From the IMG/VR virus record IMGVR_UViG_3300042445_001170, positions 48,168 to 112,167 of that record: a DNA stretch of 64,000 bases; one strand, written 5' to 3'. The stretch is from a virus. The position numbers were made by a program, and so were the translations under genes. The notes below the pieces were generated by a model. It ran no database searches and was not told where the DNA came from. It saw only the letters and a program-made list of their open reading frames with translations. Shown here piece after piece: positions 9,040 through 63,998 of the stretch; positions within the stretch are counted from its first letter, which is position 1, and each line of letters opens with the position of its first letter.

Positions 9040-9040
9040 T

Positions 9041-14217: not shown

Positions 14218-14249
14218 TTATTGTCTCTCTCTTTGATACAATTATATCA

Positions 14250-15959: not shown

Positions 15960-18900
15960 AGCACTTCCTTAATATTCAAGGTCCCATCATCAAGTTTTGC
16001 TAATGTAACCCTGCATTTCATTCCTTCACGCATTTTGGCCAATGTCATTTTATACATAGCTGGGAATGCGATGGCTCTAGTTAAATTCTTATCTTTATCT
16101 GAGAGAACGATGTGACTCATTTGCTTGCCAGCCTTTGTTGTGTATGGAGTAAAGTTTACCACAATGTACTCGTCTTCTTCAAGGTCATACTTCTTCCTAT
16201 ACAGGTAGTCTACAAATAGGTCGCTAGAGTCTGGATTGATATCTGAAACCTTAATATACCTTGCAATTCTATTATCTCCGACAAGAATAAAATACATTTG
16301 ACCTGTTTCAATCTGTGTCTGCTCTGTATGGAATAAGCCTATCGATCCAGTCTCATCTACTAGTTCTACTCTGGCCCACCCATTTCCACGCTTAATAGAC
16401 TTAACCATTCCAAACATTACAAATGAGCCCAAGTCATCAAACTCTTCAATTGGTCTCGCCTGAGCTTTAATTCTTGGAGGAATTCCTTCAAGATTAAATG
16501 TCGGTATACCTAGGTATTCGTAGTAATTGTCTTTTTCATTTCCTTGCCTTTTGTTATCAGTAAACGCAGCACCGCCGATGGAGTTAAGAGCAGCAATAGC
16601 ACGGCTATTAATGCCAGAACCCTTTTTCGATGCCTTATCAATAAAGTCAGCATAGTCACTGAACGGTCTTCTTTCTATGATCTTGTTTGCAATACTATCT
16701 GAAATAAATTTTACTTCAGCTAGACCAAATCTAATTGCATTTTCTTGTAATGAAAAATATACCTGAGACTCATTAATGTGTGGTAGCAGCACCTTTAGAC
16801 CAAGTCTCTTAGACTCAATTAAATATTCTGTTCTCGCATCTTTATCATTTTCATTTTTAAGAATTGAAAACATGAACTCAAGTGGGTAATAGAACTTAAG
16901 CCAAGCAGTATAATAACTAAGCATAGAGTAAGCAACAGCATGGGAGCGGTTAAAAGAATAACCAGCATGCGCTTCAAAATCATGCCATAGTGCTTCTGCC
17001 TTTTTCTTAGTAATGTGTTCTGAAGCCCCAGCAATAAACTTATCCTTGAACTGGTCAAATTCTTTTGCATCTTTTTTCTTTCCAATAATCTTGCGGACCT
17101 TATCAGCCTCTGCCCAAGTCATACCGCCCAAGTGTACACATGCCTGCATAACCTGCTCTTGATATATAATAACACCGTATGTGTTCTCGGTAAACGGCTT
17201 CATGATTGTATGCATATAGTCTACCGCCTCATTACCATTTTTACGATTAATGTAAGCTGCACCGACTGTATTCATTGCTCCAGGACGAACAAGGGCATTG
17301 GATGCAGCAAGATCTTCAAACTTGTCTATACCCATTTTAATCAAAAGGTTTGTATAAGGCGTTGCTTCTGCCTGGAACACACCCTTTGTATACCCGTCGT
17401 TCAACATCTTGTAAACATTGGCATCGTCCAGGGTCATTTCAGAAAGATTAATTGTCTTTCCATGCCTATCTTTAATAGACCTTATAGTGTCAGAGATCAC
17501 AGATAAAGTCTTAAGACCTAGTGCATCTAGCTTAATAAGACCTATATCTGCAACCGTATCCATGTCGTATGCGACGACTGGAATTCTTCCTGAAACTTTA
17601 TCTTGAGAATCTTCACGAGATTCAACTGGCGCAAATTTTCTTAAATCATCTTTTGCGACAACCACGCCAGCGGCGTGTACGCCAACTGATCTTATTCTTC
17701 CACGAAGCCTGTCGGCAAGCCAAACAACTTCTGGATAGCGCATTCTAAATTCTTTTGTATTTGGTGAATCAATAAAGTCCTCAAAAGTATCTACGGATTT
17801 TAGTGCACGGTTAACTTCTTGCAGAGGAACCATGAAAACACGAGAAGCATCTCTAACTACACCCTTGTCTTTAAAGTATGTATATGTTGAAATGGATGCA
17901 ACGTGCTTAAACTTCTTCTTCAAATAATCTTTAACTTCTTTTCTACGGCGGTCTTCAAAGTCGGTATCGATATCTGGAAAGTCGTTGCGCTCTTCATTAA
18001 TAAATCTAAAGAACAGAAGATCGTATTTAATAGGGTCAACATCAGTAATTCCTAATGTATAACAAACTAAAGATCCAGCAGCCGAACCACGGCCTGGACC
18101 AACCATAATATTATTTTCTTTAGCCCAATTAATCATGTCTCCAACAACAAGGAAGTATGAGGCAAAATTTTTCTTGGCAATAATCCCAAGCTCTTCGTTA
18201 AGCCTATCGATATAAATAGGGTCTGAAGCCTTCTGAAGCCTCTCTAAGCCCTTTTCAGCCAACTCCCTTAGTCTTTCATCAGCATCGGTCTTTGGAACTG
18301 GCAGGAGGTCTAGGCCCTGATAGAAGTCATATTCCCCAACCTTATCAGCAATTTCCATTGTATTCTCATAGATGTCTGTTCGATTAATGCCAGCCTTATT
18401 AAAGTCTGCTTCTATTTCGGAACGGCTCTGAATAAATAAATTCATATCTTGAAATGATATTCTTCTATCAGGATAAAGATAGTTAAATCTATCTAACATA
18501 TCCTTCATGTTTCTAGACATATCAAAATCCATATCCTTATCAGCCTTTGGAGATGTTGATAGGATTAGCAATGCTTCTTCTAGTATTCTATCTTCTTCTT
18601 TAGCAAAGTGAGCATCTCCTGTTGCCACCGCCTTAATTTTAAGTTCATCTGCAAGCCTTAGTAGCGCTGAGTTAATTTCCATAGGGTTATGTGATTGGAC
18701 TTCCACATAAAAATCATCCCCAAACATTTGCTTAAAGCTTTTGAGCAAAATCTTAGCCTCATCATCATTGCCCTTTTCAATAGCCTTACTAATAAGACCG
18801 TTAAGACATCCACTGAGTACGATAATGCCTTCTTTATAATCATTAAGAATTTCCCTATCAATACGTGGCTTATGATAAAAACCTTCATTCCAAGCAAGCT

Positions 18901-39500: not shown

Positions 39501-41878
39501 TCGGCAGCAGCTAATTGTGTTATTTCAGAAAATTGTGGTAGTAATGCTTGATAAGAATCTGCTAGGCTTGATGTAACTGTGCCAGTTGCCATTACTTCTG
39601 CCTTTAATATCTTTATTTCTGCTTCGGACTGCATCGCTATTGCTGCTGTCATTGCATGCCATTTTGCTGCCTCTTGTGCAACGATACCAGTTGAAGTTCC
39701 GTTAACAGATGTAACTCCTGGAATCTTTGGCATATCTTGATTCATGTATGCTTGTGGATTTTTTCCAATTCTTACATTTACTGGACCAGCTCCAGGAACT
39801 GTTCCAAATATTGTTCCCATCTGCTGGCTCTGTGCTGGTATAAGGTGGGACATATCTCTTGAATATGGTGCTCCAATTAATGGATTATCTTTATCTACAA
39901 TTCGTTGTCCTGCTCCGCCTGCAGCAATTACTCCACCTGCAATTGTTGATATAGCTGGCTGAACTGCAACTTTTGCTGCATTCGCTTTTAGCTCAAGGTT
40001 ATTAAAAGACTGTGTTAATGTATTTACTGCATTTGATAAAACAATTGTTGCTTCTGAGTCTGAATAGAACGAAGTTGCTAATCCTTTTGCTGCTGCTTCT
40101 GCAGCCATGATTTCTGGGGTAAGTAGCTTGAATCCTTGGCCACCTTTAGCAAGTTGTCTTAAATGGAATATACCCTTTACAACATATCCAATAAAGTTGC
40201 CCATCACACCAGCCATCATAATAAGAGGACCAGCAATTGCTGTTAGGCCTCCTAATGCATTCAAGAATGTTTTAACTGGGCCTGGAAGGTGCTGGAAGAA
40301 CTTGATGATTGAATCTACAACTTTTAATACTTGTGTGCTTATTCTTAAGAACTGCTCACCTGTTTGTGCTAAATCTGCCTGTACTGATGCCCATGCTCTT
40401 TTAAATTGTCCAGATGCTGACTCTGTCATCATCTTTAATTCTCGCTCAGATATCTGTGCAAGATCTACTGCGCTTGCCTTCATTAAGTCCATGACTTGAA
40501 GTGTCTGCGATCCTTGCTTTCCTAGGTTTTCAAATAGTGCAGACATTCTTGCAAACTGGAACTTACCAAATAGCTGCTCAATTGCTCTTGACTTATCTAA
40601 TGGGTTTAGTTTGTCTAGCGCTGCCTGCAACGCCATAATAGTTCCTGTTAAGTCACCAGCGTTACTATTTACAATACCCTTTAAATCGATTCCAAATCCT
40701 GCAAACTGCTCGGTTGCAACTTTAGTTGGGTTAATAAGAGAAGCCATTGCTGACTTAATTGCGTTAGCGCCTTCAGCAGCATTTACTCCACCTTCTTTCA
40801 TGGCAGTAAGGTAAAGTGCTAAATCTTTTACATCTCCGCCAAGCGATTTAATTACTGGTCCTGCTTTAGGGATTGCTTCAGTTAAATCTGCAAGGCTTGT
40901 TGATGTCTGGTTTTCAACTGCGTTGAGGAAGTCGATTGACTGTGTAAGCTCTTCTGTATTTTGCTTAAATGCATTTTGAATAGCAAGCGTTGCTTTCATA
41001 GCATCTTGTCTATCTACTTCACCAAGAACTGCAAGTCTTGTTGTTTGCTGGGTAGCTTGAATTAAATCATTTCCCTGCTGACCAGTTGCTGCAAGGTCAG
41101 CTGCTAATGCAATTGTTTCTTTGTATGCAACTCCGTATGAGCTAGCAATCTCTTTTGCTGTAGCCTTTACGTCTTTTCTAACCTGAGCTAAGTCTGCTGA
41201 AGATGTCGCTGCAAGACCGCCATAAACTTTTGTAAGTCTTACTAGCTCTGCATCTGCTTCTCTAAATGCTTTTTGTGCAGCCATTCCAAATGCTGCAAGA
41301 GGTACAGTTAAACCAACAGTTAACTGACGACCAGCCCACTGTGTATTCTTACCCCAGTTAATAAGCTGATTAGATCCATCAAGCATAACCTTGTTCATGA
41401 TTGCTGCTTCTTGGCGAGCAAGTGCCATCTTGTTCTTTACTTCATCTAAGCCTTTTGCAACCATTACGTTGTACTGCATTAGGCCTTGTGCATTTTTACC
41501 AACTGGCTGAACTATTGCTTGCTGAAGCATTACTTGCTGCTTTGCAAGATCTCTAATTAAGTTGCTAGTTTTCTTTGTGTGGCCGTTCCAAGCATTATAG
41601 TAATCGTTGAGCTTTAAACGGCCTCTATCTAAGTTCTTGCCGAACTTGTCTACGTCTGAAGATAGTGATACAAAGTGTGAAGAGAACTGGCCAGTTGAAC
41701 GCATCGTTTCTGCAAACGACTTGTTCATCACTGCAATTTGATTTGCAAGCTTGGCGTTAGTTCCCGCTGTTGTTTCTTGTAATTTTACGAGTTGGGCAGT
41801 AACCGCAGCTAGTTGAGTTCTTAAACTCGTGAAGTCTGCGTGGGCGGTAATATTGGTCGTGATTAAATTATCTGCCAT
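33518..41878 (-). CDS. Tape measure protein (2786 aa) with inserted globular domains
   Basis: TP901-like TMP core (GRQLTVGLTVPL; LTEAIPKAGPV; EGANAIKS), long helical regions, ADGG/GEFVV motifs, position after the tail chaperones. Confidence 0.92.
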   Translation of the reverse strand: MADNLITTNITAHADFTSLRTQLAAVTAQLVKLQETTAGTNAKLANQIAVMNKSFAETMRSTGQFSSHFVSLSSDVDKFGKNLDRGRLKLNDYYNAWNGHTKKTSNLIRDLAKQQVMLQQAIVQPVGKNAQGLMQYNVMVAKGLDEVKNKMALARQEAAIMNKVMLDGSNQLINWGKNTQWAGRQLTVGLTVPLAAFGMAAQKAFREADAELVRLTKVYGGLAATSSADLAQVRKDVKATAKEIASSYGVAYKETIALAADLAATGQQGNDLIQATQQTTRLAVLGEVDRQDAMKATLAIQNAFKQNTEELTQSIDFLNAVENQTSTSLADLTEAIPKAGPVIKSLGGDVKDLALYLTAMKEGGVNAAEGANAIKSAMASLINPTKVATEQFAGFGIDLKGIVNSNAGDLTGTIMALQAALDKLNPLDKSRAIEQLFGKFQFARMSALFENLGKQGSQTLQVMDLMKASAVDLAQISERELKMMTESASGQFKRAWASVQADLAQTGEQFLRISTQVLKVVDSIIKFFQHLPGPVKTFLNALGGLTAIAGPLIMMAGVMGNFIGYVVKGIFHLRQLAKGGQGFKLLTPEIMAAEAAAKGLATSFYSDSEATIVLSNAVNTLTQSFNNLELKANAAKVAVQPAISTIAGGVIAAGGAGQRIVDKDNPLIGAPYSRDMSHLIPAQSQQMGTIFGTVPGAGPVNVRIGKNPQAYMNQDMPKIPGVTSVNGTSTGIVAQEAAKWHAMTAAIAMQSEAEIKILKAEVMATGTVTSSLADSYQALLPQFSEITQLAAAETEAIVAQLQASKITVDQARAKVMQMNATVEAMLAETAAATAAGMGRVANLTTVPLTSQPVVDPLTGKSNMKEMFHKGTTKDIVDKIARALGGVRTSGAGYNIQTTKPKFADGGIVPGTGNSDTYHTTAEAGSFVINKKSTQENMPIISNLLGGTPAFADGGQVPVVLTPGEAVIPADIAQDNMPLMHALNGGPGNTSGLGRNLGGGLSENLFTGLKGWLTRNSDPSYDASLKNRVILHDAAVLNHLGFSEDEAVSMAKRDFEEAMQRTKDPKTGQVDRKAFNRFRIQQSRRMQEYIDMQGMGRTVVNKDGSTSKAKYKDLLWQDKAEELKPGGRPSANARIQPTRSLVAALMARADIDQVSLQRVMNTFTANGKLDYASEHLDQDRNFFTEENGNIKSNRTRGNAYLAMAGSSKVNNFTNWLASMTQGKFVDRVPLTGNAARETADLLAKELKYGNAQNLIKRMPVIQRGHMITQMMRLLLTRGRALPLTKEIAANSGGEIPGQFAQRLFGGGKAMFLGMPKTIKQVEQQRAMKAAMEKADIAVKDSRFAKHPVTEYGDLLEPTSGRSFPVPGIGGVYTRNGEKVFVKPMLDEKAALAEMRATQIAREAHGLKAPKQTLNVMRDPTDPKGLRKLLVLESPFDKALTVQDGKFTTDEYFRQLLASSLRGDKDLGRGNLSGNVLSDVGTAGVFSTASGLRDYAGFMPSVGDQAMVNLLGIKGSGAKKFFAESTMDIPKGMTPDAYNSRMLEEIEATLPRLKKTIGSFDLNQQEKVVYAKMIKRLEDARDVKWRELHGVHSAVVPSKETNLTPAALAKIAAAEELKRRQSGHIVSLSDAGFKSSANGFAIGGMIGNVLKGKAMHRIGAGFGPTGAPKPSMYESAPWGVNSLSIEMANTLFANTGLRKHTQKLFYDKFAAALAKEKPYGYVKDAKGSLKNALEPDVLDAVVRSAASDLIGDRSVLKQLSPIDKDILRQKYLNWESKKDTPLTESLKKIIFGLEGREKGGPVNGGQAYIVGEKGPELFVPRVSGGIVPNNKYGIGGQIAGGMAVAAGAQFIASKVANPIISMIIQQVGFMLPMMMQSAAMMGGGGKGKLMSKVPASMTTPVGVISGKTGGLTKYGTAITEMATSGKKFQAVIGKLGLAMTRFNLIAFGAVTAVTLGIKLWKNHQESMRLNALGYGMTAEAAKKAGLRFTDFNKKLKETVADAQAVKERNQMMYESMTTSGTPLKLTIEQYKKLKKEVNSVYKDQIALINKTSYDDQADLAIRLKEQLMAMGMSAEDATAKIYAMYKASNQSNNTSAFTTSSKAFMNIKTSVDAAREALNTYSDAVRKDLDPTEQANALNTAAMGIDTAIADKESDAMKARKKDKSKPSFISTAESDKIKWDAEKQALDQISSKLEGQKRLSKETLDEMEKQNPALRKIASEQDTALTLWKKTRIEARGFIGDLSGLSAAQTNALYALQSAVAKGVETTNRGGILKAQYVALDKLKGLQEKYQKALKGQSVAQQISDRDRLAAINKQIDANNKLADARKKALQDKKNEQDSGRAIEAKKLELQNAEATGNTAGAQQARLDLEGLVATQQYDAQIKAIDAATEKANAPLKKAAEAMAKKQQDLGDAAAYAGEKLGDVTKEIETNEGKIEALNKAMTTYRLAIEIHKDDLKKWKTTDEAKGMLAAITQAATDAKVDMSGLPKDKDGNVGIAAGQALFDSVSSGLEASLKEQGIVVNGDVIINGKKIDLGNAGSKTATLADPGKIAGKKTGTGATGDPIQYFTQSGKKVTKKEYESMPVGSPSQTQSYIIPDSKLSGKEFASRDAAMRAFYKAHKSSWLQGDTTYTSNGMVMQDGKIIGSWLAAMGDQSGRVKSYKDGGLLSGPGTGTSDSIYMPMMPKGKYASGAYVSNGEFVVNAQAVRQPGILPLLERINNMQYSVPQSNFQAAAFNVGSGSTINLTQNIYPSDGMNTESFVRQVVTMTKQAIGQDAKLNAKMVGTKRT

Positions 41879-53013: not shown

Positions 53014-54114
53014 CTACTTTTCTTCTAGTAATTTTACTCTTGCTGTAAGTTCTTGGACTGCTTTAATTAGCGGAGAAATAAATTCTTCGTATCTTAATGC
53101 TTGCTGTCCTTCTGGATCATTCACATCAGAAATTACCCAACCGCCAAAGTCTGCAATGTTAGCTTCATCTAATACAGACTTAACCTGTTGTGCAATTAAT
53201 CCGTAATGTGTTCTGTCCCCGTCAATTTTATTATACTTAACTGGGCTAAGATTATTGATGAAACTTAATCCTAAATCTGATGCCGCTACATTCTCTTTTG
53301 TTCTTTCGTCAGAAATTACTGTTGCTGCTGTATTTAAATATATATTTTTCCAAGCTCTTGTAACGTTATCTGGGCCAGAGTTAATAGGTCCTAGTAGGCC
53401 TAAAGAAAATGAATTTGTTACGAATGGATACCACGATGAGTTTACTCCAGTTGATGAAGTTGCTGTTGTTTGCAAAGCAATTCTTGTTGCAATCGGATCT
53501 ATAACCGCATTTGATCCTGCTGGACCAGCTGGGCCTGTTGCACCTTGTGCGCCATCTGCTCCACGAGGAATTACAAAATCTAATAAAACTGCACTAGACG
53601 TTCCACTATTTGTAACTGTTGCGCTAGTTCCTGCTGCTGACGTGGTTGTTGAATTTACTGATATGGTTGCTGCAGCATCCCCCTTGGGGCCTGTTGCACC
53701 TGTAGCACCAGTTGATCCAGTATCTCCTTTTGGCAGAACTAAATTTAAAACTTGAGACGGAGATGTACCAGTTATAGTTGCAGATGCCGTTACTCCTGCT
53801 GTGACTGTTCCGATAGATAAAACATTAGAAGGTCCAGGGCCTCCCAAAATTCCATCTTGTCCTCTTGGAATATTAAAAATTAAAGATTGTGATGGAGATG
53901 TTCCAGTAATAGTTACAGATGCATCTTGACCAGCACTAAGTGTATTTGTTGCAGATACAGTTAAAACATTTGACGGGCCAGTTAGTCCTTGAGGACCAGG
54001 ATGTGCTGCTATGTACGTTGCAATATCTTCGCCTAAAATACCAAGATCCCTAGGTACATCGGGTGAATCCGAGTAACTTGGGAAATGCCATCCATTAACG
54101 CCTACTGTTGCCAT
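53014..54114 (-). CDS. Collagen-like fibre protein with a C-terminal S74 chaperone
   Basis: Gly-X-Y runs (GPQGLTGP, GDTGSTGATGATGPKGD, GADGAQGATGPAGPAG) alternating with LxFxIPRG modules; SDERTKEN...GLIAQ...LIKAVQEL. Confidence 0.82.
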   Translation of the reverse strand: MATVGVNGWHFPSYSDSPDVPRDLGILGEDIATYIAAHPGPQGLTGPSNVLTVSATNTLSAGQDASVTITGTSPSQSLIFNIPRGQDGILGGPGPSNVLSIGTVTAGVTASATITGTSPSQVLNLVLPKGDTGSTGATGATGPKGDAAATISVNSTTTSAAGTSATVTNSGTSSAVLLDFVIPRGADGAQGATGPAGPAGSNAVIDPIATRIALQTTATSSTGVNSSWYPFVTNSFSLGLLGPINSGPDNVTRAWKNIYLNTAATVISDERTKENVAASDLGLSFINNLSPVKYNKIDGDRTHYGLIAQQVKSVLDEANIADFGGWVISDVNDPEGQQALRYEEFISPLIKAVQELTARVKLLEEK

Positions 54115-54120
54115 TTTTTA

Positions 54121-54129
54121 ATTATACCA
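54121..54129 (-). promoter_or_regulatory. Extended -10 promoter, leaderless
   Basis: TGGTATAAT 6 nt before the ATG at 54114. Confidence 0.7.
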
Positions 54130-54130
54130 C

Positions 54131-54748
54131 CTATGAAATTATCTTACTTCTTTTAAACATGAAAGCTGGGCACATGTACTTATTGCCAGAAACAAGTGGA
54201 GTTGAGGCATGAAAATATGGTTTTACTGAAGGGAATATGACAAGGCTGCCAGCTTCTGGCTTAATCTTTATGTCCTGTTCTGGGAATGCTAGGTCTCCTC
54301 CAACGTAGTCATCGTTTAAATAAAGAACAATTGAGGCAGTTAGTCTTGCCTCATCGTCATCTTCTTCACAATCTATGTGGGGCCCCATTTGAGCTGGTGG
54401 GAAATACTTTCTTATTGTAACTTCATTCGGCAAAAACCCTAAATCTTTATTTAAAGATTCGGAATAGTCTGCTACGCACAAATTAATTGCATTAAGTATT
54501 GTAGCCACAATTAAAGCATATCTTTTATCTACATCGTTGTTTGACTGTGGGGCAGTGAAGGCACCAGACTTGTATTCTCCAAAAATATCATTTGGGTTAT
54601 TGCTTGATGTCCATCTCATCCATTTTGTTAAATGAGCATTTTCTTGAGATAGGACATCTAGCCTTTCAATTTCTTTTACAAACTCGTTTGGGTTGGCAAT
54701 AACATTTTTATAATAATAAATGTTATTATCAAGAAGTTCTTTTATCAT
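54131..54748 (-). CDS. 2OG-Fe(II) oxygenase, P4H-like (start moved to MIKELL)
   Basis: HID...YLNDDYVGG...FPS..PYFHAS...KY. Confidence 0.88.
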   Translation of the reverse strand: MIKELLDNNIYYYKNVIANPNEFVKEIERLDVLSQENAHLTKWMRWTSSNNPNDIFGEYKSGAFTAPQSNNDVDKRYALIVATILNAINLCVADYSESLNKDLGFLPNEVTIRKYFPPAQMGPHIDCEEDDDEARLTASIVLYLNDDYVGGDLAFPEQDIKIKPEAGSLVIFPSVKPYFHASTPLVSGNKYMCPAFMFKRSKIIS

Positions 54749-55443
54749 TCTCTGCCTTCTGGCATTACTGGTTTGCCTTCTGGTGTTGCCCACTTTTTAT
54801 AAATCTTTTCTTGTTCTGCTCTTACTGCCTTTAATTCTGTTGCCCAAGCTTCTCTCTGCTCTTCAGTATATTCTATGCTAGCATCATCCCAAAATGAACC
54901 GATTGTATATCTTATGCCACCCTTTACTGTAGTAACCATATGCTCTCGTGTATGTCCACCAGCAAATATTGCAGTTAGACCAACCTTTGGCTTTATGTCG
55001 ATATCGCTATCCTTAAACTTTAGGTGACCACCTTCAAAATCATCATTTAAATAAATAAATACCGCATACTTACTTCTTTCAAATGCTGTAGGGTTTCCAA
55101 GTTCATCTGAGTTGTCGGAATGATAGTCTGCAAAAGCGCCCTCAATCCATCTCTGTGCATGGTAGCTAACTTCAGAAACTTCAAACCCTAAAAGCTCTTC
55201 AGTCTTTGCTTTTATTTTTTCTTTGAGCTGATTAAAGAAATCTTCTGGCAAACCAAAAAGTTTTAAATTAGGGTCTGAAGGCCAGTATCCCATAGCTTCT
55301 GATCCATAAAATGATATCTCGTTCCACTTTAATATCTTGTTTTCAACCAAAAAATCAAAATAATTTATAATAGCAGAACAGGTTTTTTGATCTACAAAAT
55401 TTTCTACTATAAAGAATTCATCTCTTATTTTTGGAATTGGCAT
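54745..55443 (-). CDS. 2OG-Fe(II) oxygenase, P4H-like
   Basis: HSD...YLNDDFEGG...HMV...RY. Confidence 0.88.
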   Translation of the reverse strand: MPIPKIRDEFFIVENFVDQKTCSAIINYFDFLVENKILKWNEISFYGSEAMGYWPSDPNLKLFGLPEDFFNQLKEKIKAKTEELLGFEVSEVSYHAQRWIEGAFADYHSDNSDELGNPTAFERSKYAVFIYLNDDFEGGHLKFKDSDIDIKPKVGLTAIFAGGHTREHMVTTVKGGIRYTIGSFWDDASIEYTEEQREAWATELKAVRAEQEKIYKKWATPEGKPVMPEGRE

Positions 55444-55444
55444 G

Positions 55445-56227
55445 TCAGTATCCTAAATTCTTTCTTTCAGAATATCTCATGTTTGCTGGGTTTTCTCTTT
55501 CAATTCTTTTTTGCTCCATCTTGGCCCATGTATAAGCTCCATAGTGCTTTTGATTTGCAATCCATTGTGGGTGACCATCATAATAGTATTGGATAAAGTT
55601 TCTTATAAAGAACTTGTTGCCATTTCTAATTGTTCTTACTCCATGGAAATAAGGGTCTTGTGAAGGGAATACAAGGATGTCTCCAGCTTTTGGCTTATAT
55701 GGGAAATATTCTTCTCCTATATAAAACTCAATGTCTCCGCCCTCATAATCATCATTGATGTATGTTGTACATGTAAGCAAAAACTTTGGACCAGGCATAT
55801 CTCTTTCTGAAATAATAAAGTCTGTGTGGTACTGCATTGACATTTCGTTTCCCATTGTATCAACATTTGCATCATATTTTGAAAAAGATGATGTCATTAA
55901 TTTAGCTGATTCTGGCAATACAATCCCGTATGTATTTTTGTAATCTTCAATAGCAGTATTATAAGCCTCATAGACTCTATCTGAAAGCATCTTTTCTTCA
56001 TCGTATCTTGGGCCGAATTCTCTAGGCTCATCCTCATTATGTTTTTGTTGAGAGTATGTTCCAAATATTGACCACTCGTCCCAATTTCTTAAATAGTATC
56101 TGCCTTCTGCATCGTGATCTGACTCTTTCATGATTCTATACAACTCGTCAGCATCTGGGAGAAGCCCCTGGTATATTCTTACATTTGGCAAAAGCTCAAA
56201 AGATGTATACTCATAATTATTTGTCAT
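55445..56227 (-). CDS. 2OG-Fe(II) oxygenase, P4H-like
   Basis: HTD...YINDDYEGG...YFHGV...KF. Confidence 0.88.
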   Translation of the reverse strand: MTNNYEYTSFELLPNVRIYQGLLPDADELYRIMKESDHDAEGRYYLRNWDEWSIFGTYSQQKHNEDEPREFGPRYDEEKMLSDRVYEAYNTAIEDYKNTYGIVLPESAKLMTSSFSKYDANVDTMGNEMSMQYHTDFIISERDMPGPKFLLTCTTYINDDYEGGDIEFYIGEEYFPYKPKAGDILVFPSQDPYFHGVRTIRNGNKFFIRNFIQYYYDGHPQWIANQKHYGAYTWAKMEQKRIERENPANMRYSERKNLGY

Positions 56228-56891
56228 TGTCTACTCTACCTAATCTAGTTATTGTCCAAAAGAATGGTGCGGTGTATCTTGTTCCGCTTGTTACTTTTGT
56301 TACCCCATGAATATAGTTCTTATCTCCTGGGAAAAAATATGCAGCCCTTGGCTTTGGTTTAAACTTTATATTTTGCAATGGGAAGAACAGCTCTCCACCT
56401 TCATAATCGTCATTCAGATAGAATACAGTTCCTATGTCATACCAAGGAAACTCATTCTCTGTTCCAGCATCTGGGCCTTCGTGAAGCTCTTTATCCGCAT
56501 GTGGGAATTGCATTGCTCCTACTGGCCACCTTACTATAGCTGCGTCAGTAGGTGAAACCTCTACATCAAACTTCTCTCTAATGTGAGGAGTCATTCTTTT
56601 CACAACAAGATTTAATATTCTAACAACTTCTGGGTCAGCTTTCATTAAGGAGTCTTTAGTTGCAACTCTATCTTCCCATACTCTGTGGTCATAAATAATA
56701 TTTCCGTTTTCGTTCCACTGTGACTCTGTGACGTCCCAAATTTTATTGTTTCTTGCAAAATTTAAAAGATATTCTTGTTCTTCTAGCGTGACCATGTCCT
56801 CTAGCTCTACTACATTATCTGGTGAGTTGCCGAAATGACCAGATGGGGTAATTGACATTCTTGCAAACCTAGCTCTTTTTGTATATTCCAT
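56217..56891 (-). CDS. 2OG-Fe(II) oxygenase, P4H-like
   Basis: HAD...YLNDDYEGG...HGV...RY. Confidence 0.88.
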   Translation of the reverse strand: MEYTKRARFARMSITPSGHFGNSPDNVVELEDMVTLEEQEYLLNFARNNKIWDVTESQWNENGNIIYDHRVWEDRVATKDSLMKADPEVVRILNLVVKRMTPHIREKFDVEVSPTDAAIVRWPVGAMQFPHADKELHEGPDAGTENEFPWYDIGTVFYLNDDYEGGELFFPLQNIKFKPKPRAAYFFPGDKNYIHGVTKVTSGTRYTAPFFWTITRLGRVDNDK

Positions 56892-56898
56892 TTTTCAC

Positions 56899-57627
56899 CT
56901 ATTCATATTTCTTTAAAGACCTGACGTTGAGCTTATACGCTCCACCATCTTTTGTTCTAAACTTTTTTGCCTGCTGGTTGTGCCTTTTTTCTATTTCATC
57001 TTTAGAATAGAATTTTTTTTCCATCTTCCAGTCTTCTCTTTTATATGGTATTAATTGCATGTAAGGTGTTCCTGCTGGAATGGTGCCCTCAAAATCTTTT
57101 TTAAGAAAAAATGGCATTAGGCCAGGAGTATCCATCTTATCATTATCTATTATAGCAGAAGTGGTAATAAATGGTAAATCAAATCTATTTATTGGATGAA
57201 TGTACATTACGCTATATCCATCTGGAACGGATGGCGCCCAGTTTGGATACCAGTGAAAATGATAGTCATCGCATCCAATTGGTGTTGGGAAACTTTTCAT
57301 TGGCTGTCTCACTCCTATAAAATCCTCATAGCCAGCTTCCGTTTTTACAAAAGTAGTTCCATCTGTATTCTTTTTAAAAGTTATATTACATGGTGTTACG
57401 TAAACATATCCGCTTATAAATATATCAAGTAGTCCTGGACATGATCTAAATGTTCTTACTGGACCGCCCTCTGTATTTAAATATGGCTCCTGGGTATTTG
57501 GGTCAATTTCAAATTTTGGAGCATCCTTAAACCATTCTGGCATTAAAGACTTTGTGGTCTGCGGAGCATACGAATCAGAAATAATGTTATATAGCCTATT
57601 AGAATGAAATGTTATTTTATTTGTCAT
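56899..57627 (-). CDS. DUF6065-related hypothetical protein
   Basis: PEWFK..CPG..SGY..PDGYS..HPINR..GTPYMQLIP; no HxD...H triad. Confidence 0.6.
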   Translation of the reverse strand: MTNKITFHSNRLYNIISDSYAPQTTKSLMPEWFKDAPKFEIDPNTQEPYLNTEGGPVRTFRSCPGLLDIFISGYVYVTPCNITFKKNTDGTTFVKTEAGYEDFIGVRQPMKSFPTPIGCDDYHFHWYPNWAPSVPDGYSVMYIHPINRFDLPFITTSAIIDNDKMDTPGLMPFFLKKDFEGTIPAGTPYMQLIPYKREDWKMEKKFYSKDEIEKRHNQQAKKFRTKDGGAYKLNVRSLKKYE

Positions 57628-58321
57628 TTACCCGTAGCCTCAAAGTCTTGGTCTCGTGTTCACCGACAACTTTTCCCTTATGATCCGTTGCGTTCCTATA
57701 GAAACCCGCCCACTTACCAGACTGATTAATTTTATCTACTGTCATTCCGTATTCTCTTCCATCGTAGGCCGATCCGACATAGCCCTTGCCATCATAAAGA
57801 TCTACCTCATATCCATTAATTTCTTTTAGTGATATTGGAAGTATTACGGCAACGGGTGTGCCAGCTTTTATGGTTATAACTTTTCCTGGTGAAGTAACTC
57901 TCCATACGACTGGAACTTCCCCAGAAAAAAATGATGTTGTTAATAAAGTTGTAAATGCTTGTGCTCCATCTATAAAAAAGTTGGGGGCTGGCATTGTTAG
58001 GATTGTTGTGTTTTTATCAGTCTTAAATGTAAGTCCAGTTATAAAGCTTATTGTTGCATTAGACCTATTTGTATGAACATATTTTTCTCCAGAAAGTACT
58101 TTAATGTGTATGGGCTGGCTGTCTGATATTCCGTCCCAAATAAAGGAGATGTCTTCTGGGAAGGATATTCCCCATCCTAAAGTATTAGATAGGCTGACTG
58201 GAAAACAGTTATATGCATGTCTGTCTGCAGTCTCATCCATCCATTCTCTATTTACTTTTATTTGTTCTATTTTTGCTGGGTTGTCGCCAGTCTTAAAAAC
58301 ATTTATTTTACGCATATCCAT
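57617..58321 (-). CDS. DUF6065-like protein
   Basis: REWMD...AYNCFPV..SN..GW...GTPVAVILP. Confidence 0.65.
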   Translation of the reverse strand: MDMRKINVFKTGDNPAKIEQIKVNREWMDETADRHAYNCFPVSLSNTLGWGISFPEDISFIWDGISDSQPIHIKVLSGEKYVHTNRSNATISFITGLTFKTDKNTTILTMPAPNFFIDGAQAFTTLLTTSFFSGEVPVVWRVTSPGKVITIKAGTPVAVILPISLKEINGYEVDLYDGKGYVGSAYDGREYGMTVDKINQSGKWAGFYRNATDHKGKVVGEHETKTLRLRVNDK

Positions 58322-59006
58322 CTGTATACTTTTTCTCTATCTCTCGATATGCTGGTGTGTGTGGTGCTTCTAGGTAATCAAGCATTGTTACTATAGAATA
58401 CTTTGTTCCGCTTGTTACTGGAAGTGAGGCGTGAGAGAATAAGTATGAAGAAGGGAATAGATAAAGGTCTCCCGCCTGTGGCTTTATTTTTAAATTAAAC
58501 TTATCAAAAAATAACTCCCCGCCTTCGTAATCATCGTTAATATACCCAACTGAAGATAGCACACAGATATAGGAGTATCCGTGGTCAGAGTGTACTTGAA
58601 AATGCTGCCCTGGTCCATATTTAACAAAGTTAAAAGACTCCCAGTAATTTAGTGGTGCAAGGTTAAACTTTTGTCTATAGTCTTCTACTGGGCCTAGCTG
58701 TGCATCTTTAGCATTTTCCCATATTGATTCTAGTTTAATTTGATCTGCGCTTTTGCCATCATCATCCTGTTTGTTTTTCTTAATTTTAAAATCAAATGCG
58801 TCTCTATACTTTAAATCGCTCAAAGCATAACCAGTTGTGGCCTGCTTCCATTTATAAGTTGCATGTGGTGAGTCTGAGTATCCAACACCTTCGGCATCTG
58901 GGTCTCTGGATAAACATTCTTCAAGCCTGTTAATCAAATTCATTTCTTTTGGAAATACATTTCTATATACAAGAACTCCTGGCGCTAACATCTCTGGCTG
59001 ATTCAT
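58308..59006 (-). CDS. 2OG-Fe(II) oxygenase, P4H-like
   Basis: HSD...YINDDYEGG...FPS..FSHAS...KY. Confidence 0.88.
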   Translation of the reverse strand: MNQPEMLAPGVLVYRNVFPKEMNLINRLEECLSRDPDAEGVGYSDSPHATYKWKQATTGYALSDLKYRDAFDFKIKKNKQDDDGKSADQIKLESIWENAKDAQLGPVEDYRQKFNLAPLNYWESFNFVKYGPGQHFQVHSDHGYSYICVLSSVGYINDDYEGGELFFDKFNLKIKPQAGDLYLFPSSYLFSHASLPVTSGTKYSIVTMLDYLEAPHTPAYREIEKKYTDGYA

Positions 59007-59007
59007 A

Positions 59008-59715
59008 CTACCCTCCCATATTCAATTTAGTTTTATTTTTTAGTCTAACAAAGCTGTCAAACTCATCTCCGTGAGAATTATCGTTATAGTCTGTCATTGT
59101 TACTACAGAGTATTTTATGCCATCAGAAACTGGCATAGCTGCGTGTGAAAATAAATATGTTGAAGGGAAGATGTAAAGATCCCCAGCTTTAGGTTTAATT
59201 TGTAAACCAAGTTTTGGGAAAACAATTTCTCCGCCAACATAGTCATCGTTTATATAGCCAACTAATGAAACTGTTGACACATAAGAAAACCCATGATCTG
59301 CATGCTCTTTAAAGTAATTGCCTGGACCATATTTAACAAAGTTCATTTTTTCCCAGAAATTCATTTGTATGCTATACATGTTGCAATAGTCTTGAAGAGC
59401 TGGGTTTTGTGCGTCATATGAGTCTTGCCATATTTTTTCAAATACAATTTGATGCTTGTCTTTTTCGGGGAAGCTTGTTTTTTCAATTTTAAAATCAAAG
59501 CAGTCTCTATAGTCTATAGATTTCTTACTGCCGCCGACGGTAGCTCGTTGCCACCTGTAACCTTTAGACAAAGAAAGCTCTTCCTCTAGTCTTTGGGAAA
59601 GATTTAAATCTTTTTTAATTACATCTCTGTAAACCCAAAGTCCAGGGAAAAGCTGTTCTTTTGAAGACCATGTCTCCGATAAATCATTTTGCATTTCTGC
59701 CATTAAGCCTATCAT
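59008..59715 (-). CDS. 2OG-Fe(II) oxygenase, P4H-like
   Basis: HAD...YINDDYVGG...FPS..FSHAA...KY. Confidence 0.88.
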   Translation of the reverse strand: MIGLMAEMQNDLSETWSSKEQLFPGLWVYRDVIKKDLNLSQRLEEELSLSKGYRWQRATVGGSKKSIDYRDCFDFKIEKTSFPEKDKHQIVFEKIWQDSYDAQNPALQDYCNMYSIQMNFWEKMNFVKYGPGNYFKEHADHGFSYVSTVSLVGYINDDYVGGEIVFPKLGLQIKPKAGDLYIFPSTYLFSHAAMPVSDGIKYSVVTMTDYNDNSHGDEFDSFVRLKNKTKLNMGG

Positions 59716-59721
59716 TTATTC

Positions 59722-59750
59722 ATTATGACATTTAAGTATATAAATGTCAA
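59722..59750 (-). promoter_or_regulatory. Promoter for the oxygenase operon, leaderless
   Basis: TTGACA (59745-59750), 17 nt, CATAAT with extended TG; 6 nt before the ATG at 59715. Confidence 0.65.
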
Positions 59751-59776
59751 TTATTAAAATAAACAGCTTTTGTATA

Positions 59777-61105
59777 TTAGATCTTTAAGTTGTGTAGCAG
59801 AATTCCATCTGCAACGAACCAGTCTTGTGGCTCTGTATTTAATCTATATACTGTTGCTACTCCATCAACCATTGTGATTGATTCGATTAGCTCGTCTGTA
59901 AGAGATCCATCTTCATTTACATGAACAAGGTAGTCTCCTTCAACTATATCTGCTGAAACTTGAACCTGGTACATGCCTTCTCTTTTAATGAATACATGCT
60001 GTACTAGAGATACTTTCTTTGACTCATTGCCATTGAAATACATTACCTGCGGTACAATTTTACCAATTTTTGAAGTTACTGTTGCTTCAACATTTCCTGA
60101 AGAAACTAGGCTGTCTGAATTCCATAGTGCTAGATCAAACTCTGACTCTTCTTGTGAGCCAACTAATGGGATTCCAGCCAAATCTACTGAGACGATTGTA
60201 TCTCCGACTGCTAGATCTTTAATAGCTTTCATTCCTGTTGTTGTTTTAATAAGTGTGTTTTCTTCTATGCATCCGCCAAACCCTGGAGGAGAGAAGAACC
60301 CTGGTGGTGCAAAGAACCCTGGAGGACCGAAGAACCCTGGTGGTGCAAAGAACCCTGGAGGACCGAAGAACCCTGGTGGTGCAAAGAACCCTGGAGGAGA
60401 AAAGAACCCTGGAGGGGAAAAGAACCCTGGAGGGGAAAAGAACCCTGGAGGTGCAAAGAACCCTGGAGGAGAAAAGAACCCTGGAGGGGAAAAGAAGCTT
60501 GGTGGTGAGAAGAATGTAGTTATGCTATTAGACGCACCTGAAGTCTGTCCTGAACCAATTGCATTTGTTGCATATACTGTGTAGGTCTGAGCAGTTCCTT
60601 GCTCTTGTGATACTGAAACTGATGTGGAGGTTGTGTTACCAGTCTTTCCATCAGATGATGCCCAGTAATAGGCACCTAGTGGTGATCCTCCGTTTGCTGG
60701 AGTAGACCATGAAACTACGTCCACTCCTGCTGAAGATGATGAAGCCGAAACTCCTGTTACTTGAGCTGGAACAGTAGCTGAAAGCGGTGTCAATGTTGCT
60801 TGTGTTGAAGGACCATTACCAACTGCATTAGATGGAGTTATTGTAAATGTATAGTTTGTTCCACCAGCAAGGCCTGTAAAAGACTTTGTAGTAGAGGTTG
60901 ATGTTTGTGTTGTTGTTGCTGGATTTGACACTATTGTATATAGTGTTGCTGCTGGTGAATCGGATGGAAGCGTCCAAGACAAGTTCGCTGAACCGTTATT
61001 GAACGCCCCTCCGTTAACACCAGTGGCAGTAAATCCAGTAACCGCCTTTGGCTCCAGGAAGTTGTCCTGTGCTGAAGACTTAATACCGATTTTCTTATTT
61101 GCCAT
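59777..61105 (-). CDS. Fn3-Fn3-(FFxPPG)13-Hint autoprocessing protein
   Basis: Two Fn3 repeats (LSWTLP..GLAGGTNYTFTITPSNAVG; VSWSTP..YTVYATNAIG), 13 hexapeptide repeats, then a Hint domain GG|CIEENTLI..IKDLAVGD..VYRL..FVADGILLHN-LKI. Confidence 0.85.
   Translation of the reverse strand: MANKKIGIKSSAQDNFLEPKAVTGFTATGVNGGAFNNGSANLSWTLPSDSPAATLYTIVSNPATTTQTSTSTTKSFTGLAGGTNYTFTITPSNAVGNGPSTQATLTPLSATVPAQVTGVSASSSSAGVDVVSWSTPANGGSPLGAYYWASSDGKTGNTTSTSVSVSQEQGTAQTYTVYATNAIGSGQTSGASNSITTFFSPPSFFSPPGFFSPPGFFAPPGFFSPPGFFSPPGFFSPPGFFAPPGFFGPPGFFAPPGFFGPPGFFAPPGFFSPPGFGGCIEENTLIKTTTGMKAIKDLAVGDTIVSVDLAGIPLVGSQEESEFDLALWNSDSLVSSGNVEATVTSKIGKIVPQVMYFNGNESKKVSLVQHVFIKREGMYQVQVSADIVEGDYLVHVNEDGSLTDELIESITMVDGVATVYRLNTEPQDWFVADGILLHNLKI
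60281..60514 (-). repeat. 13 x 18-bp coding tandem repeat, FF[S/A/G]PP[G/S]
   Basis: Directly visible (gaaccctgg(a/t)gg...); includes an exact 36-bp higher-order duplication. Confidence 0.97.
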
Positions 61106-61133: not shown

Positions 61134-62936
61134 TTAAGCTGACAGATCGCCAACAAGTACCCAAGTATTTGCTGCTCTCTTTATTAATGTTGCTGATGAC
61201 CATTGTGCACGAAGCTTTAAGCCTGGAGTTGCATTTACTGTAACTCCACCTGCTGCTGCGATGTCTACTGCTCCTGCTCCCACTCTTAGAACATCTAGCG
61301 ATGTGCCGACTGGGAATGCAACTGCTGCATCTGTTGGAATTGTGACTGTTGTTGCAGAAGCTGAGTTCATTTCAATCATTGAGTCTTTTTCGTTAATTGA
61401 TGAAAGTGTGTAGCTTGCTGTCTTCTGTGAAATTGGTGTAGCAGATGGGACCTTGCCTGCAAGTGCTGTTGTTACAGTAGTTGCATAGTTTGCATCGTCT
61501 CCAAGTGCTGCAGCTAGTTCATCAAGTGTATTCAATGCTGCTGGTGCTGCTGCGATAACTGCATTTACCTGTGCTGTTGCATCTGCAATAGCTTCTGACT
61601 TAGCAGTTGCAATTGCTGAAGCCTGTGCTGTAGATACTGGCTTATTTGCATCTGATGTATTATTTACATTTCCAAGACCTAGGGTGGCTGCTGTTACTGC
61701 TGCAACCTCTGACTTAAGTGCTAGGAGTGATGTATCTGAAATTCCGTGAACATTTGTTGTATCAGCGTTGTGGTCTGATACCTTTGTATCTGCTGCAGAG
61801 GCTGCTGCTGAAATAGCTGCTGCCTGTGCATTGGAAGCCTTAGTTGTAGCGTCTGCTGCAGCTGCTGTAATTGCACCAGCTACCGCTGTGTCTGCTGCTG
61901 CTCCTGCTGCGGCAATTGCTTCTGTTTTAGCAATTGCAGTTGTATTTGCTGCTGATGTGATGGCTGCTGCTTGAGCTGCTGCTGCTTTAGCTGTAGCGTC
62001 TTCTGCTGCAGTTGTTGTTGCTGCATTAGCCTTAGTTGTAGCGTCTGCTGCTGCTGCAGAAATTGCTGCTGCTTGAGCGGCGTTAGCCTTAGTTGTAGCG
62101 TCTGCTGCTGCAGTTGTAATTGCACCTGAAACTGCAGTTGTACGATCTGAAACTAAATCGTAGTCAGCAATTATTGCACCTGCTGGGATTGTTACTGTTC
62201 CAGTAAATGTAGGTGAAGCAATTGGAGCCTTTGTAGCCAAACTGTTTGTTACAGTTGTAGAAAAGTTTGCATCTGATCCCAGTGCATTTGAAAGCTCTAG
62301 AAGAGTGTCTAGCGCACCTGGTGCGCTATTAACAATGTTTGAAAGCTGTGTAGCTACATAGCCTTGGCTTGCTACAGATGTTGGTGAATTTGAAAAATCA
62401 ATATTCAAATCTCCAGTTGTAGAGTTATAGTTAAGACCATTTCCAGAAACACTTATCTTATTTCTAACAGAAGAGTCGCTAATTTGAGCTGCTGGAATTG
62501 TAGCGGCTGAATCAAGTGAAGCAACTCCGTAAGCAACTCCCTTGTCTGACTCTGGGACATATGTTGCATCTGATGTGCTTTGAAGTCCTGCTACGCCTGC
62601 TGCTACAGCTGTTGATATAGCTGATGCTACGTATGTCTTGTTTGCCCATATTGTGTCATCAATTGCTACTGTGATTGTGTTAGCACCGTCATTATATGTC
62701 TTTGTAAGACCTGTTCCAACTGCAAGAGCTGAATTTATTGCATCTTGTGCAATTTCTGTAACGCCAGGTGTATCTGATGCACCATATGCAAGTGTGCTCC
62801 AAGCTCCTGTACCGTTACCAAACTTAAACTTATTTGTGTCTGTTTCGTATCCCATTTCTCCTGCTGCTAGAATTGGGTTTACTGAGGTCCAGTCTGCTGC
62901 GACGCCTCTTCTTACTTGAATTCTTACTGTTGACAT
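61134..62936 (-). CDS. Tail fibre with an Mtd-N/hyaluronidase-type N-terminus and an Ala-rich shaft
   Basis: IQVRRG..W..NPILAAGEMGYETDT.KFK.G.G..W; two APxALxTLxELxxALGxDAN modules; AAADATTKA repeats; WVLVGDL C-terminus. Confidence 0.8.
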   Translation of the reverse strand: MSTVRIQVRRGVAADWTSVNPILAAGEMGYETDTNKFKFGNGTGAWSTLAYGASDTPGVTEIAQDAINSALAVGTGLTKTYNDGANTITVAIDDTIWANKTYVASAISTAVAAGVAGLQSTSDATYVPESDKGVAYGVASLDSAATIPAAQISDSSVRNKISVSGNGLNYNSTTGDLNIDFSNSPTSVASQGYVATQLSNIVNSAPGALDTLLELSNALGSDANFSTTVTNSLATKAPIASPTFTGTVTIPAGAIIADYDLVSDRTTAVSGAITTAAADATTKANAAQAAAISAAAADATTKANAATTTAAEDATAKAAAAQAAAITSAANTTAIAKTEAIAAAGAAADTAVAGAITAAAADATTKASNAQAAAISAAASAADTKVSDHNADTTNVHGISDTSLLALKSEVAAVTAATLGLGNVNNTSDANKPVSTAQASAIATAKSEAIADATAQVNAVIAAAPAALNTLDELAAALGDDANYATTVTTALAGKVPSATPISQKTASYTLSSINEKDSMIEMNSASATTVTIPTDAAVAFPVGTSLDVLRVGAGAVDIAAAGGVTVNATPGLKLRAQWSSATLIKRAANTWVLVGDLSA

Positions 62937-63422: not shown

Positions 63423-63998
63423 TTACTTAAGTAGTGTTCCAGATACTTTAACTGTTGAGTTGTCTGTTGGTGTAACCTTTACAAGAACATTTGCACCAGA
63501 TACTTCTGCTGTAATTGTTCCTCTTGATCCATTAGTTCCAACAATTGCATATTCTGTAATTGCTACGTTATCTGATGCATCTAGTGTTAATAGGATTTCA
63601 GATATTTCATTGTGTGTTGCGTTATCAATCTTAACAAGAAGCTTGGCTGAACGGTAGTCTGCCTTTGCCCACTGGTAAGCTGTTCCAGCAACTGATGCTG
63701 TTCCAGTTGATGAGGCTGCAATCTGCTTTGCCTGATCATTTACATTTAACGCTGTGAAAGATGTTGTTCCTTCTTGCTGAGCTGTGTTAGCTGCTGCTGC
63801 TGTAGCTTCGGCTGCTGCTTGAGCGGCGTTAGCCTTAGATGTGGCGTCTGCTGCTGCTGTAGCTTCGGCTGCTGCTTGAGCGGCGTTAGCCTTAGATGTT
63901 GCGTCTGCTGCTGCAGTTGAAACTGAAGCTGCGTCGCCTGATACTCTAAGTGCTGCTTCTGCTGCTACCTTAGATGTGGCGTCTGCTGCTGCTGTAGC
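63423..63998 (-). CDS. 3' part of a fibre-like virion protein (starts beyond the window)
   Basis: Translated by hand: (AAADATSKANAAQAAAEAT)n, then DYRSAKLLVK...EILL..D...ITEYA...VSGTLLK*. Confidence 0.75.
   Translation of the reverse strand, partial: ATAAADATSKVAAEAALRVSGDAASVSTAAADATSKANAAQAAAEATAAADATSKANAAQAAAEATAAAANTAQQEGTTSFTALNVNDQAKQIAASSTGTASVAGTAYQWAKADYRSAKLLVKIDNATHNEISEILLTLDASDNVAITEYAIVGTNGSRGTITAEVSGANVLVKVTPTDNSTVKVSGTLLK
63792..63914 (-). repeat. 57-bp (19-aa) coding tandem repeat
   Basis: Two near-identical copies with a 57-nt period, plus a partial third near 63970-64000. Confidence 0.85.

Follow-up and report, generated by a model that had tools for sequence, protein, structure and literature searches.

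A Phe-Phe-x-Pro-Pro repeat protein with a Hint-like domain beside a conserved block of prolyl 4-hydroxylase-type oxygenase genes in an uncultured lake phage: a candidate substrate-plus-enzymes cassette

In the genome of an uncultured lake phage, a gene for a protein with thirteen Phe-Phe-x-Pro-Pro-Gly units and a C-terminal Hint/intein-like domain lies directly upstream of eight abutting genes. Six of these encode 2-oxoglutarate (2OG)/Fe(II) oxygenases of the prolyl 4-hydroxylase (P4H) type, and two encode DUF6065-type proteins, D1 and D2. Within the clade to which this phage belongs, the enzyme block invariably lies next to the repeat gene, the oxygenase paralogues keep a fixed order, and the family of the downstream enzymes changes with the chemistry of the repeat. 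This suggests, with a confidence slightly short of an even chance, that the Pro-Pro tract is the hydroxylation substrate of the neighbouring P4H-like enzymes, with the Hint domain trimming or transferring what they make. The DNA analysed, here called the window, is the last 64 kb (positions 48,168 to 112,167) of the 112,167-base IMG/VR virus record IMGVR_UViG_3300042445_001170; positions below are those of the window unless the genome is named. An earlier note, made from the letters of the window, had proposed that the locus is a cassette of a substrate and its tailoring enzymes. All the parts that it named were found and all genes of the region are on the minus strand; the observation itself is confirmed, and the reading placed on it is partly supported.

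Tandem arrays of 2OG/Fe(II) oxygenase genes are among the commonest unexplained gene sets of aquatic phages, and to our knowledge no substrate has been assigned to them since 2010. The present array is of this already known kind, and to it is added a candidate substrate. New here are the fixed order of the old paralogues, the tracking of repeat type by enzyme family, and the finding that searches started from DUF6065 always lead back to a Pro-Pro repeat gene.

The repeat gene and the parts of its product are as follows.

59777..61105, minus strand: repeat protein, 442 aa, with a conserved N-terminus, an Fn3 domain and a second Fn3-like region, (FFxPPG)13, FGG and a Hint-like domain (open reading frame (ORF), Pfam)
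60279..60514, minus strand: thirteen 18-bp repeats encoding FF[S/A/G]PP[G/S] (TRF: period 18, 13.1 copies, 84% matches)
59777..60280, minus strand: C-terminal Hint/intein-like domain, 165 residues, from the Cys after FGG to HN-LKI-stop (alignment and profile)

The protein has one Fn3 match in Pfam (aa 36-103, 31 bits), and the Fn3-like stretch that comes after it is below scoring. Of the architecture Fn3-Fn3-(FF[S/A/G]PPG)13-FGG-Hint given in the earlier note, one Fn3 domain, the 13 units and the FGG-Cys junction stand; the second Fn3-like region has no score, and position 6 of the hexapeptide can also be Ser. Phe-Phe and Pro-Pro are invariant in the 13 units, with varying synonymous codons (TTT/TTC, CCT/CCA), and the tract closes with FGG, followed by Cys. 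The protein has more than 239 homologues, and 525 relatives were found in IMG/VR. In relatives, position 6 is G, S, L, Q, A, V, N, T, R or H, with Phe-Phe and Pro-Pro conserved. Since this position varies freely, Xaa-Pro-Gly, which had been put forward as a substrate feature, is not a conserved feature of the tract. As a recognition motif it was rejected for the same reason, and because tracts of the YFPFFPP type are without Gly, yet keep their P4H-like arrays. Among cultured phages there was no match to the repeat protein, to the 7.9-kb DNA of the locus or to D1. The repeat-protein profile also picks out a second, longer gene in many relatives, which follows another fibre gene a few kb upstream (L017:1298-3955, L018:1623-4382, L060:1634-4144 and others, where L numbers denote loci of relatives). 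In some loci (L168, L258, L268), this second gene is followed by one or two P4H-like (OX) genes.

The block downstream of the repeat gene consists of the following parts, in the order of transcription.

59722..59750, minus strand: sigma-70-like promoter match TTGACA-17-TGnCATAAT, in the 61-bp gap before ox1
54131-59715, minus strand: eight-gene oxygenase/DUF6065 block of abutting ORFs (six oxygenases, D1 and D2)
59008..59715, minus strand: ox1, P4H-type 2OG/Fe(II) oxygenase, 235 aa (PF13640 at 44 bits; motifs)
58308..59006, minus strand: ox2, P4H-type oxygenase, 232 aa, 51% identical to ox1 (PF13640, motifs)
57617..58321, minus strand: D1, DUF6065 protein with a predicted dUTPase-like beta-barrel and an invariant Cys (PF19541, model)
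56899..57627, minus strand: D2, DUF6065-like protein, 242 aa (phrog_7084; no Pfam match)
56217..56891, minus strand: ox3, P4H-type oxygenase, 224 aa (PF13640, motifs)
55445..56227, minus strand: ox4, P4H-type oxygenase, 260 aa (PF13640, motifs)
54745..55443, minus strand: ox5, P4H-type oxygenase, 232 aa (PF13640, motifs)
54131..54793, minus strand: ox6, P4H-type oxygenase (PF13640, motifs), likely start ATG 54748, 205 aa

The six oxygenases score 31-49 bits against PF13640, above the cut-off of 27. Residues H138, D140, Y154, N156, D157, D158, G161, G162 and H191 are invariant in the six-way alignment. In each enzyme, H138, D140 and H191 make up the HxD...H iron-binding triad, and the K/R that binds the C5-carboxylate of 2OG stands ten residues past the second His, in G-x-K/R-Y/F. 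The strand motif is YxNDD[Y/F]xGG, with Phe in ox5. The full 2OG-Fe(II) and P4H-type motifs that had been ascribed to the six enzymes are therefore present. The P4H-family assignment is likewise borne out: the nearest solved structures to the oxygenase profile are Bacillus anthracis P4H, PKHD hydroxylases, PBCV-1 P4H, P3H1 and LH3 (3itq/5hv0 at E 1.6e-9; also 5c5t at E 3e-7, 8k0e and LH3). The phage enzymes have an HxD...H...K core and a YLND..GG strand in common with B. anthracis P4H (3itq, 5hv0) and with the PKHD-type PiuC and Sbal_3634 (E 1.6e-9 to 3e-7). However, only about 100 core residues are common, the N-terminal halves differ, and those enzymes are encoded by single genes and have other or unknown substrates.

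The junctions within the block range from a 14-nt overlap to a 16-nt gap, in agreement with the tight coupling described before. For ox6, the most likely start is the ATG at 54748, in an ATGA overlap with ox5, and not the upstream GTG; the counterparts in relatives are 205-aa ORFs with a 4-nt overlap with ox5. Identity to ox1, apart from ox2, is 19-33%. The gene order ox1-(ox2)-D1-(D2)-ox3-ox4-ox5-ox6 recurs in relatives, with orthologues that are 35-70% identical. Orthologues of ox1 (38-60% identity) are the first gene after the repeat gene in Pro-Pro-type loci, and ox3 is the best-conserved paralogue across relatives (51-73% identity). Given a fixed order among orthologues of only 35-70% identity, the six oxygenases are old paralogues, each of them maintained individually, as in a multi-step pathway. 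Among cultured phages, ox2 is matched only by distant cyanophage oxygenases (about 30% identity).

The promoter that the earlier note had assigned to the block is upheld as a predicted one: the call is a consensus match only, at 11 of 12 positions. The region as a whole shows no enrichment of promoter-like matches, and the same gap again holds an 11-12/12 match in close and distant relatives (L009, L012, L016, L019, L022, L027, L037, L055).

The relation between repeat and enzymes was examined in 117 IMG/VR loci fetched from the repeat protein, with genes labelled by profiles from the window and the loci; the co-variation given here is that of about 110 loci reached from the repeat gene, and the downstream enzymes follow the repeat type in about 200 related contigs in all. 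Synteny is constant in relatives: a fibre gene, the repeat gene, a variable slot, a 116-aa gene and the portal gene. What stands first in the slot varies with the type of repeat, as follows.

FFxPPx and [FY]FP[FY]FPP tracts, directly downstream: 4-9 P4H-like genes plus D1, D2 in some
FG(x)F[S/T]P tracts, directly downstream: 1-4 copies of U1, then a class II ribonucleotide reductase (RNR), one P4H-like gene and a 1,200-aa protein
YSFTP and FGAFGA tracts, directly downstream: D2 only

Loci with YSFTP, FGAFGA or GFYH tracts have D2 and no P4H-like array. In FG-type phages, the protein of about 1,200 aa (L042:16042-19647 and relatives), which has no Pfam match, replaces a LamG-domain protein before the 116-aa gene and the portal.

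Reverse searches were started from D1 and U1 to remove ascertainment bias. From D1, a Pro-Pro-type repeat gene was reached in all 39 loci whose upstream sequence extends to 4 kb or more; from U1, 49 of the 50 repeat genes found are Pro-Pro-poor. A further 22 U1-bearing loci apparently lack a repeat gene. These are mostly false negatives of the single-sequence profile, and one of them, L219, was inspected. In its repeat gene (L219:4125-4943), Fn3 is replaced by a PASTA-like N-terminal domain, the tract is a Pro-less (GFYH)n and the Hint domain is degenerate; the genes downstream are D2-D2-U1, with no P4H-like gene. The N-terminus has thus been swapped, while tract and Hint are kept, and the constant partner of the enzyme block is therefore the tract with its Hint domain. 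The number of Pro-Pro motifs correlates with the number of OX genes (rho 0.83 in 48 non-redundant complete loci), and the Pro-Pro class and the presence of at least three OX genes switch together 2-5 times, and never oppositely, when traced on trees of the Fn3 part, of p116 and of p119. The survey of relatives suggested earlier thus finds adjacency without exception inside the phage clade, together with co-variation of enzyme family and repeat chemistry.

The U1 family, found in 1-4 tandem copies after FG-type repeat genes, comprises proteins of about 215 aa with no Pfam match and a conserved WHDHGG...GHPH...RITIAYD (HDH...H) signature. An example is L042:11279-11926, with 76 or more paralogues in related loci and gp47 of cyanophage Syn9 as a relative. 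In a predicted model (pLDDT 88), U1 has a 2OG/Fe(II) oxygenase fold: the best Foldseek matches are 3bvc and 2rg4 (E 1e-6, TM 0.64-0.68), followed by FtmOx1, AsqJ, ThoJ and PHD2. No link to the other enzyme families of the locus was found with hhalign (probabilities of about 1% or less).

The earlier note had listed two DUF6065-like genes. D1 is assigned directly, by PF19541 (105 bits, cut-off 26.6), and D2 only indirectly, by hhalign to D1 (E 5e-4), a shared Cys-Pro motif and language-model features (0.98 to PF19541-bearing clusters). By these sequence comparisons, D2 appears to be a distant relative of D1. The predicted model of D1 (pLDDT 85) has a dUTPase-like fold, with Foldseek matches to dUTPases at E 5e-5 and a VIA Z of 9.9. 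The top 12 VIA rows (19 of the 22 leading ones) are dUTPases, dCTP deaminases or a related viral enzyme, and between them stand herpesvirus pp71, ORF10 and one thermostable dUTPase. Identity to dUTPases in the structural alignments is 8-15%, and the likeness is claimed for the fold alone. C39 of D1 is invariant in 29 sequences.

The Hint domain was compared with the PDB by means of a profile of 23 relatives, which matches the Pho RadA mini-intein (E 1e-5) and the BIL domain 2lwy (E 1.5e-3). The single sequence scores 22.7 bits with Pfam Intein_splicing, below the cut-off of 35.8. Cys1, a Thr, an Asn, the block-F Asp and the terminal His-Asn are invariant in the alignment of the 23 relatives. 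Block B (Thr-x-x-His) reads SLVQH in the window and TLEHP, SLEQT, EQT or TQP in relatives, so that its His is not conserved. No +1 Cys, Ser or Thr and no C-extein were found after the terminal His-Asn, which is followed by Leu-Lys-Ile and the stop codon. Because its +1 residue is Leu, the domain is not a splicing intein. It resembles the Hedgehog/Hog and BIL domains in being a C-terminal Hint domain with Cys straight after Gly, no +1 nucleophile and no endonuclease. For a domain of this constitution, cleavage or transfer would be expected rather than splicing, and it is possible that the phage domain, unable to splice, could cleave in the Hog/BIL manner. In contrast to those systems, the block B His is not conserved here, half of the relatives are without Cys1 and/or the terminal His-Asn, the cargo is an aromatic/Pro polymer on a phage Fn3 protein, and the cleavage is as yet a prediction.

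Taken together, the locus may be a substrate-plus-enzymes cassette of the phage fibre module. The Fn3-(FFxPPG)13-Hint protein would be synthesised in the infected cell, and the six P4H-type oxygenases would hydroxylate its Pro-Pro-rich tract, probably at one position or with one stereochemistry each, on Pro and possibly on Phe or Ser. Pro-Pro-Gly and Ser-Pro-Pro are the classic substrates of P4H enzymes. The two DUF6065 proteins may serve as accessory enzymes or partners. The Hint domain would then form a thioester at the Gly-Cys junction and cut itself off. After this cleavage, a virion-associated appendage would end in the modified tract at its C-terminus, and the tract would be either free or transferred to some other nucleophile. 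The logic may resemble that of a ribosomally synthesised and post-translationally modified peptide (RiPP), to which the locus had been likened, but membership among RiPP clusters is not supported: there is no protease, RiPP recognition element (RRE) or transporter family in the ten genes, and the precursor would be a 442-aa Fn3 protein. Release of hexapeptides, glycosylation and cross-linking, also raised earlier, find no evidence at the locus.

Several observations weigh against this hydroxylation of the tract. The self-cleaving Hint domain of the earlier note has its match to mini-intein and BIL profiles, but Cys1 and His-Asn are both retained in only about 52 of 115 relatives, and some relatives stop directly after the tract or bear a Cys-rich tail in place of the domain. 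The dUTPase-like fold of D1 has no obvious use in protein tailoring. Six further OX-like genes lie away from the repeat gene in the same genome. Independent pairs on the trees number only 2-3, with sign tests at p 0.25-1. Within the Pro-Pro class, the number of enzymes shows no relation to Pro content (rho 0.27, p 0.17), so that the link between repeat and enzymes is categorical. Because the genes are adjacent, linkage alone could carry repeat gene and enzymes together. In many relatives (L032, L042, L046 and others), an unrelated class II RNR is found in the slot too, as expected of a hot spot for accessory genes. Finally, the enzyme families also occur without the repeat protein. No aromatic-repeat protein was found within the 30 kb examined around the oxygenase array of phage Syn9, or within 10 kb of the D2/U1/OX genes on contigs L232/233, L255/256 and L278. 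The enzyme toolkit thus predates its pairing with the repeat protein and is more widespread. The independence of arrays from repeat genes, which the earlier note had regarded as fatal to its proposal, is thus not seen in the clade (39 of 39 loci) and is seen in Syn9 and a few contigs.

The last of these points is the main argument for a different explanation, which is possible if somewhat unlikely: the oxygenases and DUF6065 proteins could be a self-contained module with another target (a small molecule, a peptide-derived metabolite or a host protein), brought beside the repeat gene by a hot spot and co-varying with it through descent and linkage. In Syn9, a tandem dioxygenase array, gp41-gp54, has been described together with a dUTPase-fold partner (Iyer, Abhiman, de Souza and Aravind, 2010, NAR; PMC2938197). 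Such arrays were read there as secondary-metabolite pathways, by analogy with cephamycin and with no substrate named. D2-like gp43, U1-like gp47 and OX-like genes stand together in this one array (D2 HMM against gp43, E 8.5e-14; U1 against gp47, 3.5e-10; OX profile against gp50/gp60, weakly), and the three groups of contigs named above resemble it. A self-contained module would also be consistent with the RNR in the same slot, the six dispersed OX-like genes and the mere 2-5 class switches, and its own sigma-70-like promoter means that the block may be expressed apart from the late fibre genes. On the other hand, the block is never away from the repeat-Hint gene within the clade, and three enzyme sets that match three repeat chemistries are not expected of a hot spot with random cargo. 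Pfam finds no gene for small-molecule chemistry in the block, such as one for a peptide synthetase, halogenase or transporter, and the nearest solved relatives of the oxygenases act on protein-bound Pro and Lys.

The Syn9 array, like the present one, follows tail-fibre and fibre-assembly genes. It differs in having two tryptophan halogenases and a JmjC (MINA-type) member, neither of which is seen in the block, whereas the present locus has a ribosomal candidate substrate directly upstream that co-varies with the enzymes. The two genes annotated as tryptophan halogenases lie at 12966-16071 of the Syn9 locus (L126), between tail-fibre assembly genes and the D2-like gp43.

The fibre module around the block raises the further question of other targets. 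Its genes are transcribed in the order Ala-rich fibre-like protein, 119-aa protein, 600-aa Mtd_N fibre, repeat protein and the eight abutting genes, followed by the Peptidase_S74 fibre, the LamG-domain protein, the 116-aa protein, and then portal, prohead protease and capsid. Large Streptomyces siphoviruses have portals about 57% identical to the one encoded here. The two fibre proteins next to the cassette are the following.

61134..62936, minus strand: Mtd_N fibre protein, 600 aa (PF18454 at 49.5 bits; always upstream of the repeat gene in synteny)
53014..54114, minus strand: tail-fibre-like protein with short Gly-X-Y runs and a C-terminal Peptidase_S74 chaperone domain (PF13884, tail-fibre PHROGs)

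The N-terminal Mtd_N domain of the first is of the major tropism determinant type, and the protein has long Ala-rich repeats. The Peptidase_S74 domain of the second (PF13884) scores 45.4 bits against a cut-off of 22, at aa 268-318. Its Gly-X-Y sequence is confined to four short runs of about 3-6 triplets each, with Pro mostly in the X position. No long uninterrupted Gly-X-Y tract was found in it, and the term 'collagen-like', used for it before, fits loosely at best. The next gene downstream is thus a fibre gene with Gly-X-Y, as had been said, but it is present in some array-bearing relatives only and absent, for example, from the full-array loci L019, L022, L026, L055 and L058. As an obligatory substrate it was rejected on this ground.

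That the enzymes act on these other virion proteins (the Gly-X-Y/S74 fibre, the Mtd_N fibre or the LamG protein), instead of or besides the tract, is improbable. Fibre-type genes do lie on both flanks of the block, and the Syn9 array also comes after tail-fibre genes. In the FG-type loci L041/043/045, a collagen-like S74 fibre gene is immediately preceded by two OX genes. Iyer et al. (2010; PMC2938197) have proposed that bacterial hydroxylases act on collagen-like and tail-collar proteins. Nevertheless, the S74 fibre is missing from many full-array loci and offers only its short runs with Pro mostly at X, and the Mtd_N fibre is found in all classes, with or without P4H-like genes.

2OG oxygenases of other families (AlkB, TET/JBP) act on nucleic acids, and the D1 fold, the RNR in the slot of relatives and the label 'DNA endonuclease' on some matching PHROG families could all be taken to mean that dUTPase-fold proteins bind a nucleotide and oxygenases oxidise a base, on nucleotides or on phage DNA/RNA; this is very improbable, given that the oxygenases are PF13640 P4H-type and neither AlkB nor TET/JBP, that 'endonuclease' is here a name given in the databases to 2OG-oxygenase-like phage proteins and not a tested function, that the dUTPase fold also has non-enzymatic viral uses (pp71, ORF10), and that such an activity offers no account of the match between enzyme family and repeat chemistry.

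Outside the cassette, the whole record has 10 places that match PF13640 in Pfam, and 12 by the family profile built here. The six P4H-like/OX-like genes that lie outside the array are at 11760-12731 and 7566-8159 of the window and at 12420-13244 (plus strand), 14500-15402, 16223-16921 and 39659-40477 of the genome. A class II (B12-type) RNR gene of this genome lies at 8747-10681, outside the window and upstream of the fibre module. The opening 50 bases (genome 1-50) are repeated at 111993-112042, with no exact match over 100 bases, which looks like the assembly overlap of a circular or terminally redundant genome. An ORF at 63423-63998 of the window continues past the end of the record.

A search of the literature on DUF6065, phage hydroxyproline and phage Hint-repeat proteins found nothing on this system. 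One likeness among known systems is to the P4H of chlorovirus PBCV-1 (5c5t), also a virus-encoded P4H-family enzyme that is accompanied by virus-encoded Pro-rich repeats. Work by Eriksson et al. in 1999 is said to have shown that PBCV-1 P4H acts on the viral Pro-rich repeats. The differences are that PBCV-1 has one enzyme, against six paralogues and DUF6065 proteins here, and no Hint domain; its host is a eukaryotic alga, and its substrate repeats are of the PAPK type and not Phe-Phe-x-Pro-Pro. Plant extensins (Ser-Pro-Pro-Pro-Pro) and mussel foot protein 1 consist of short tandem repeats rich in Pro and aromatic residues that are hydroxylated by dedicated P4Hs. The analogy is one of function alone: those proteins are secreted eukaryotic products, unrelated in sequence to the phage repeat, and their Tyr/DOPA or arabinosylation chemistry is not indicated for the phage repeat.

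It is tempting to speculate further, improbable as this extension is, that the clade builds a tailored aromatic polymer on its virions, with a matched set of oxygenase- and dUTPase-fold proteins for each repeat chemistry (Phe-Phe-x-Pro-Pro, FG-x-F-Ser/Thr-Pro, Tyr-Ser-Phe-Thr-Pro and Gly-Phe-Tyr-His), and that the Hint thioester attaches this polymer covalently to another molecule of the virion or of the host surface. Such a polymer would parallel the chemistry of extensin or mussel glue in a virus, and would give a first function to the orphan dioxygenase arrays of aquatic phages.

The value of the locus lies in having a concrete ribosomal candidate substrate beside the enzymes, in a clade where three or four repeat chemistries provide natural 'swap experiments', and in being open to test by co-expression and mass spectrometry. 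If hydroxylation of the tract is correct, DUF6065 and the Pfam-less U1 would gain functions, and the six enzymes would be at hand as orthogonal peptide hydroxylases that recognise a short, defined motif. It would also mean that phages post-translationally hydroxylate their own structural proteins.

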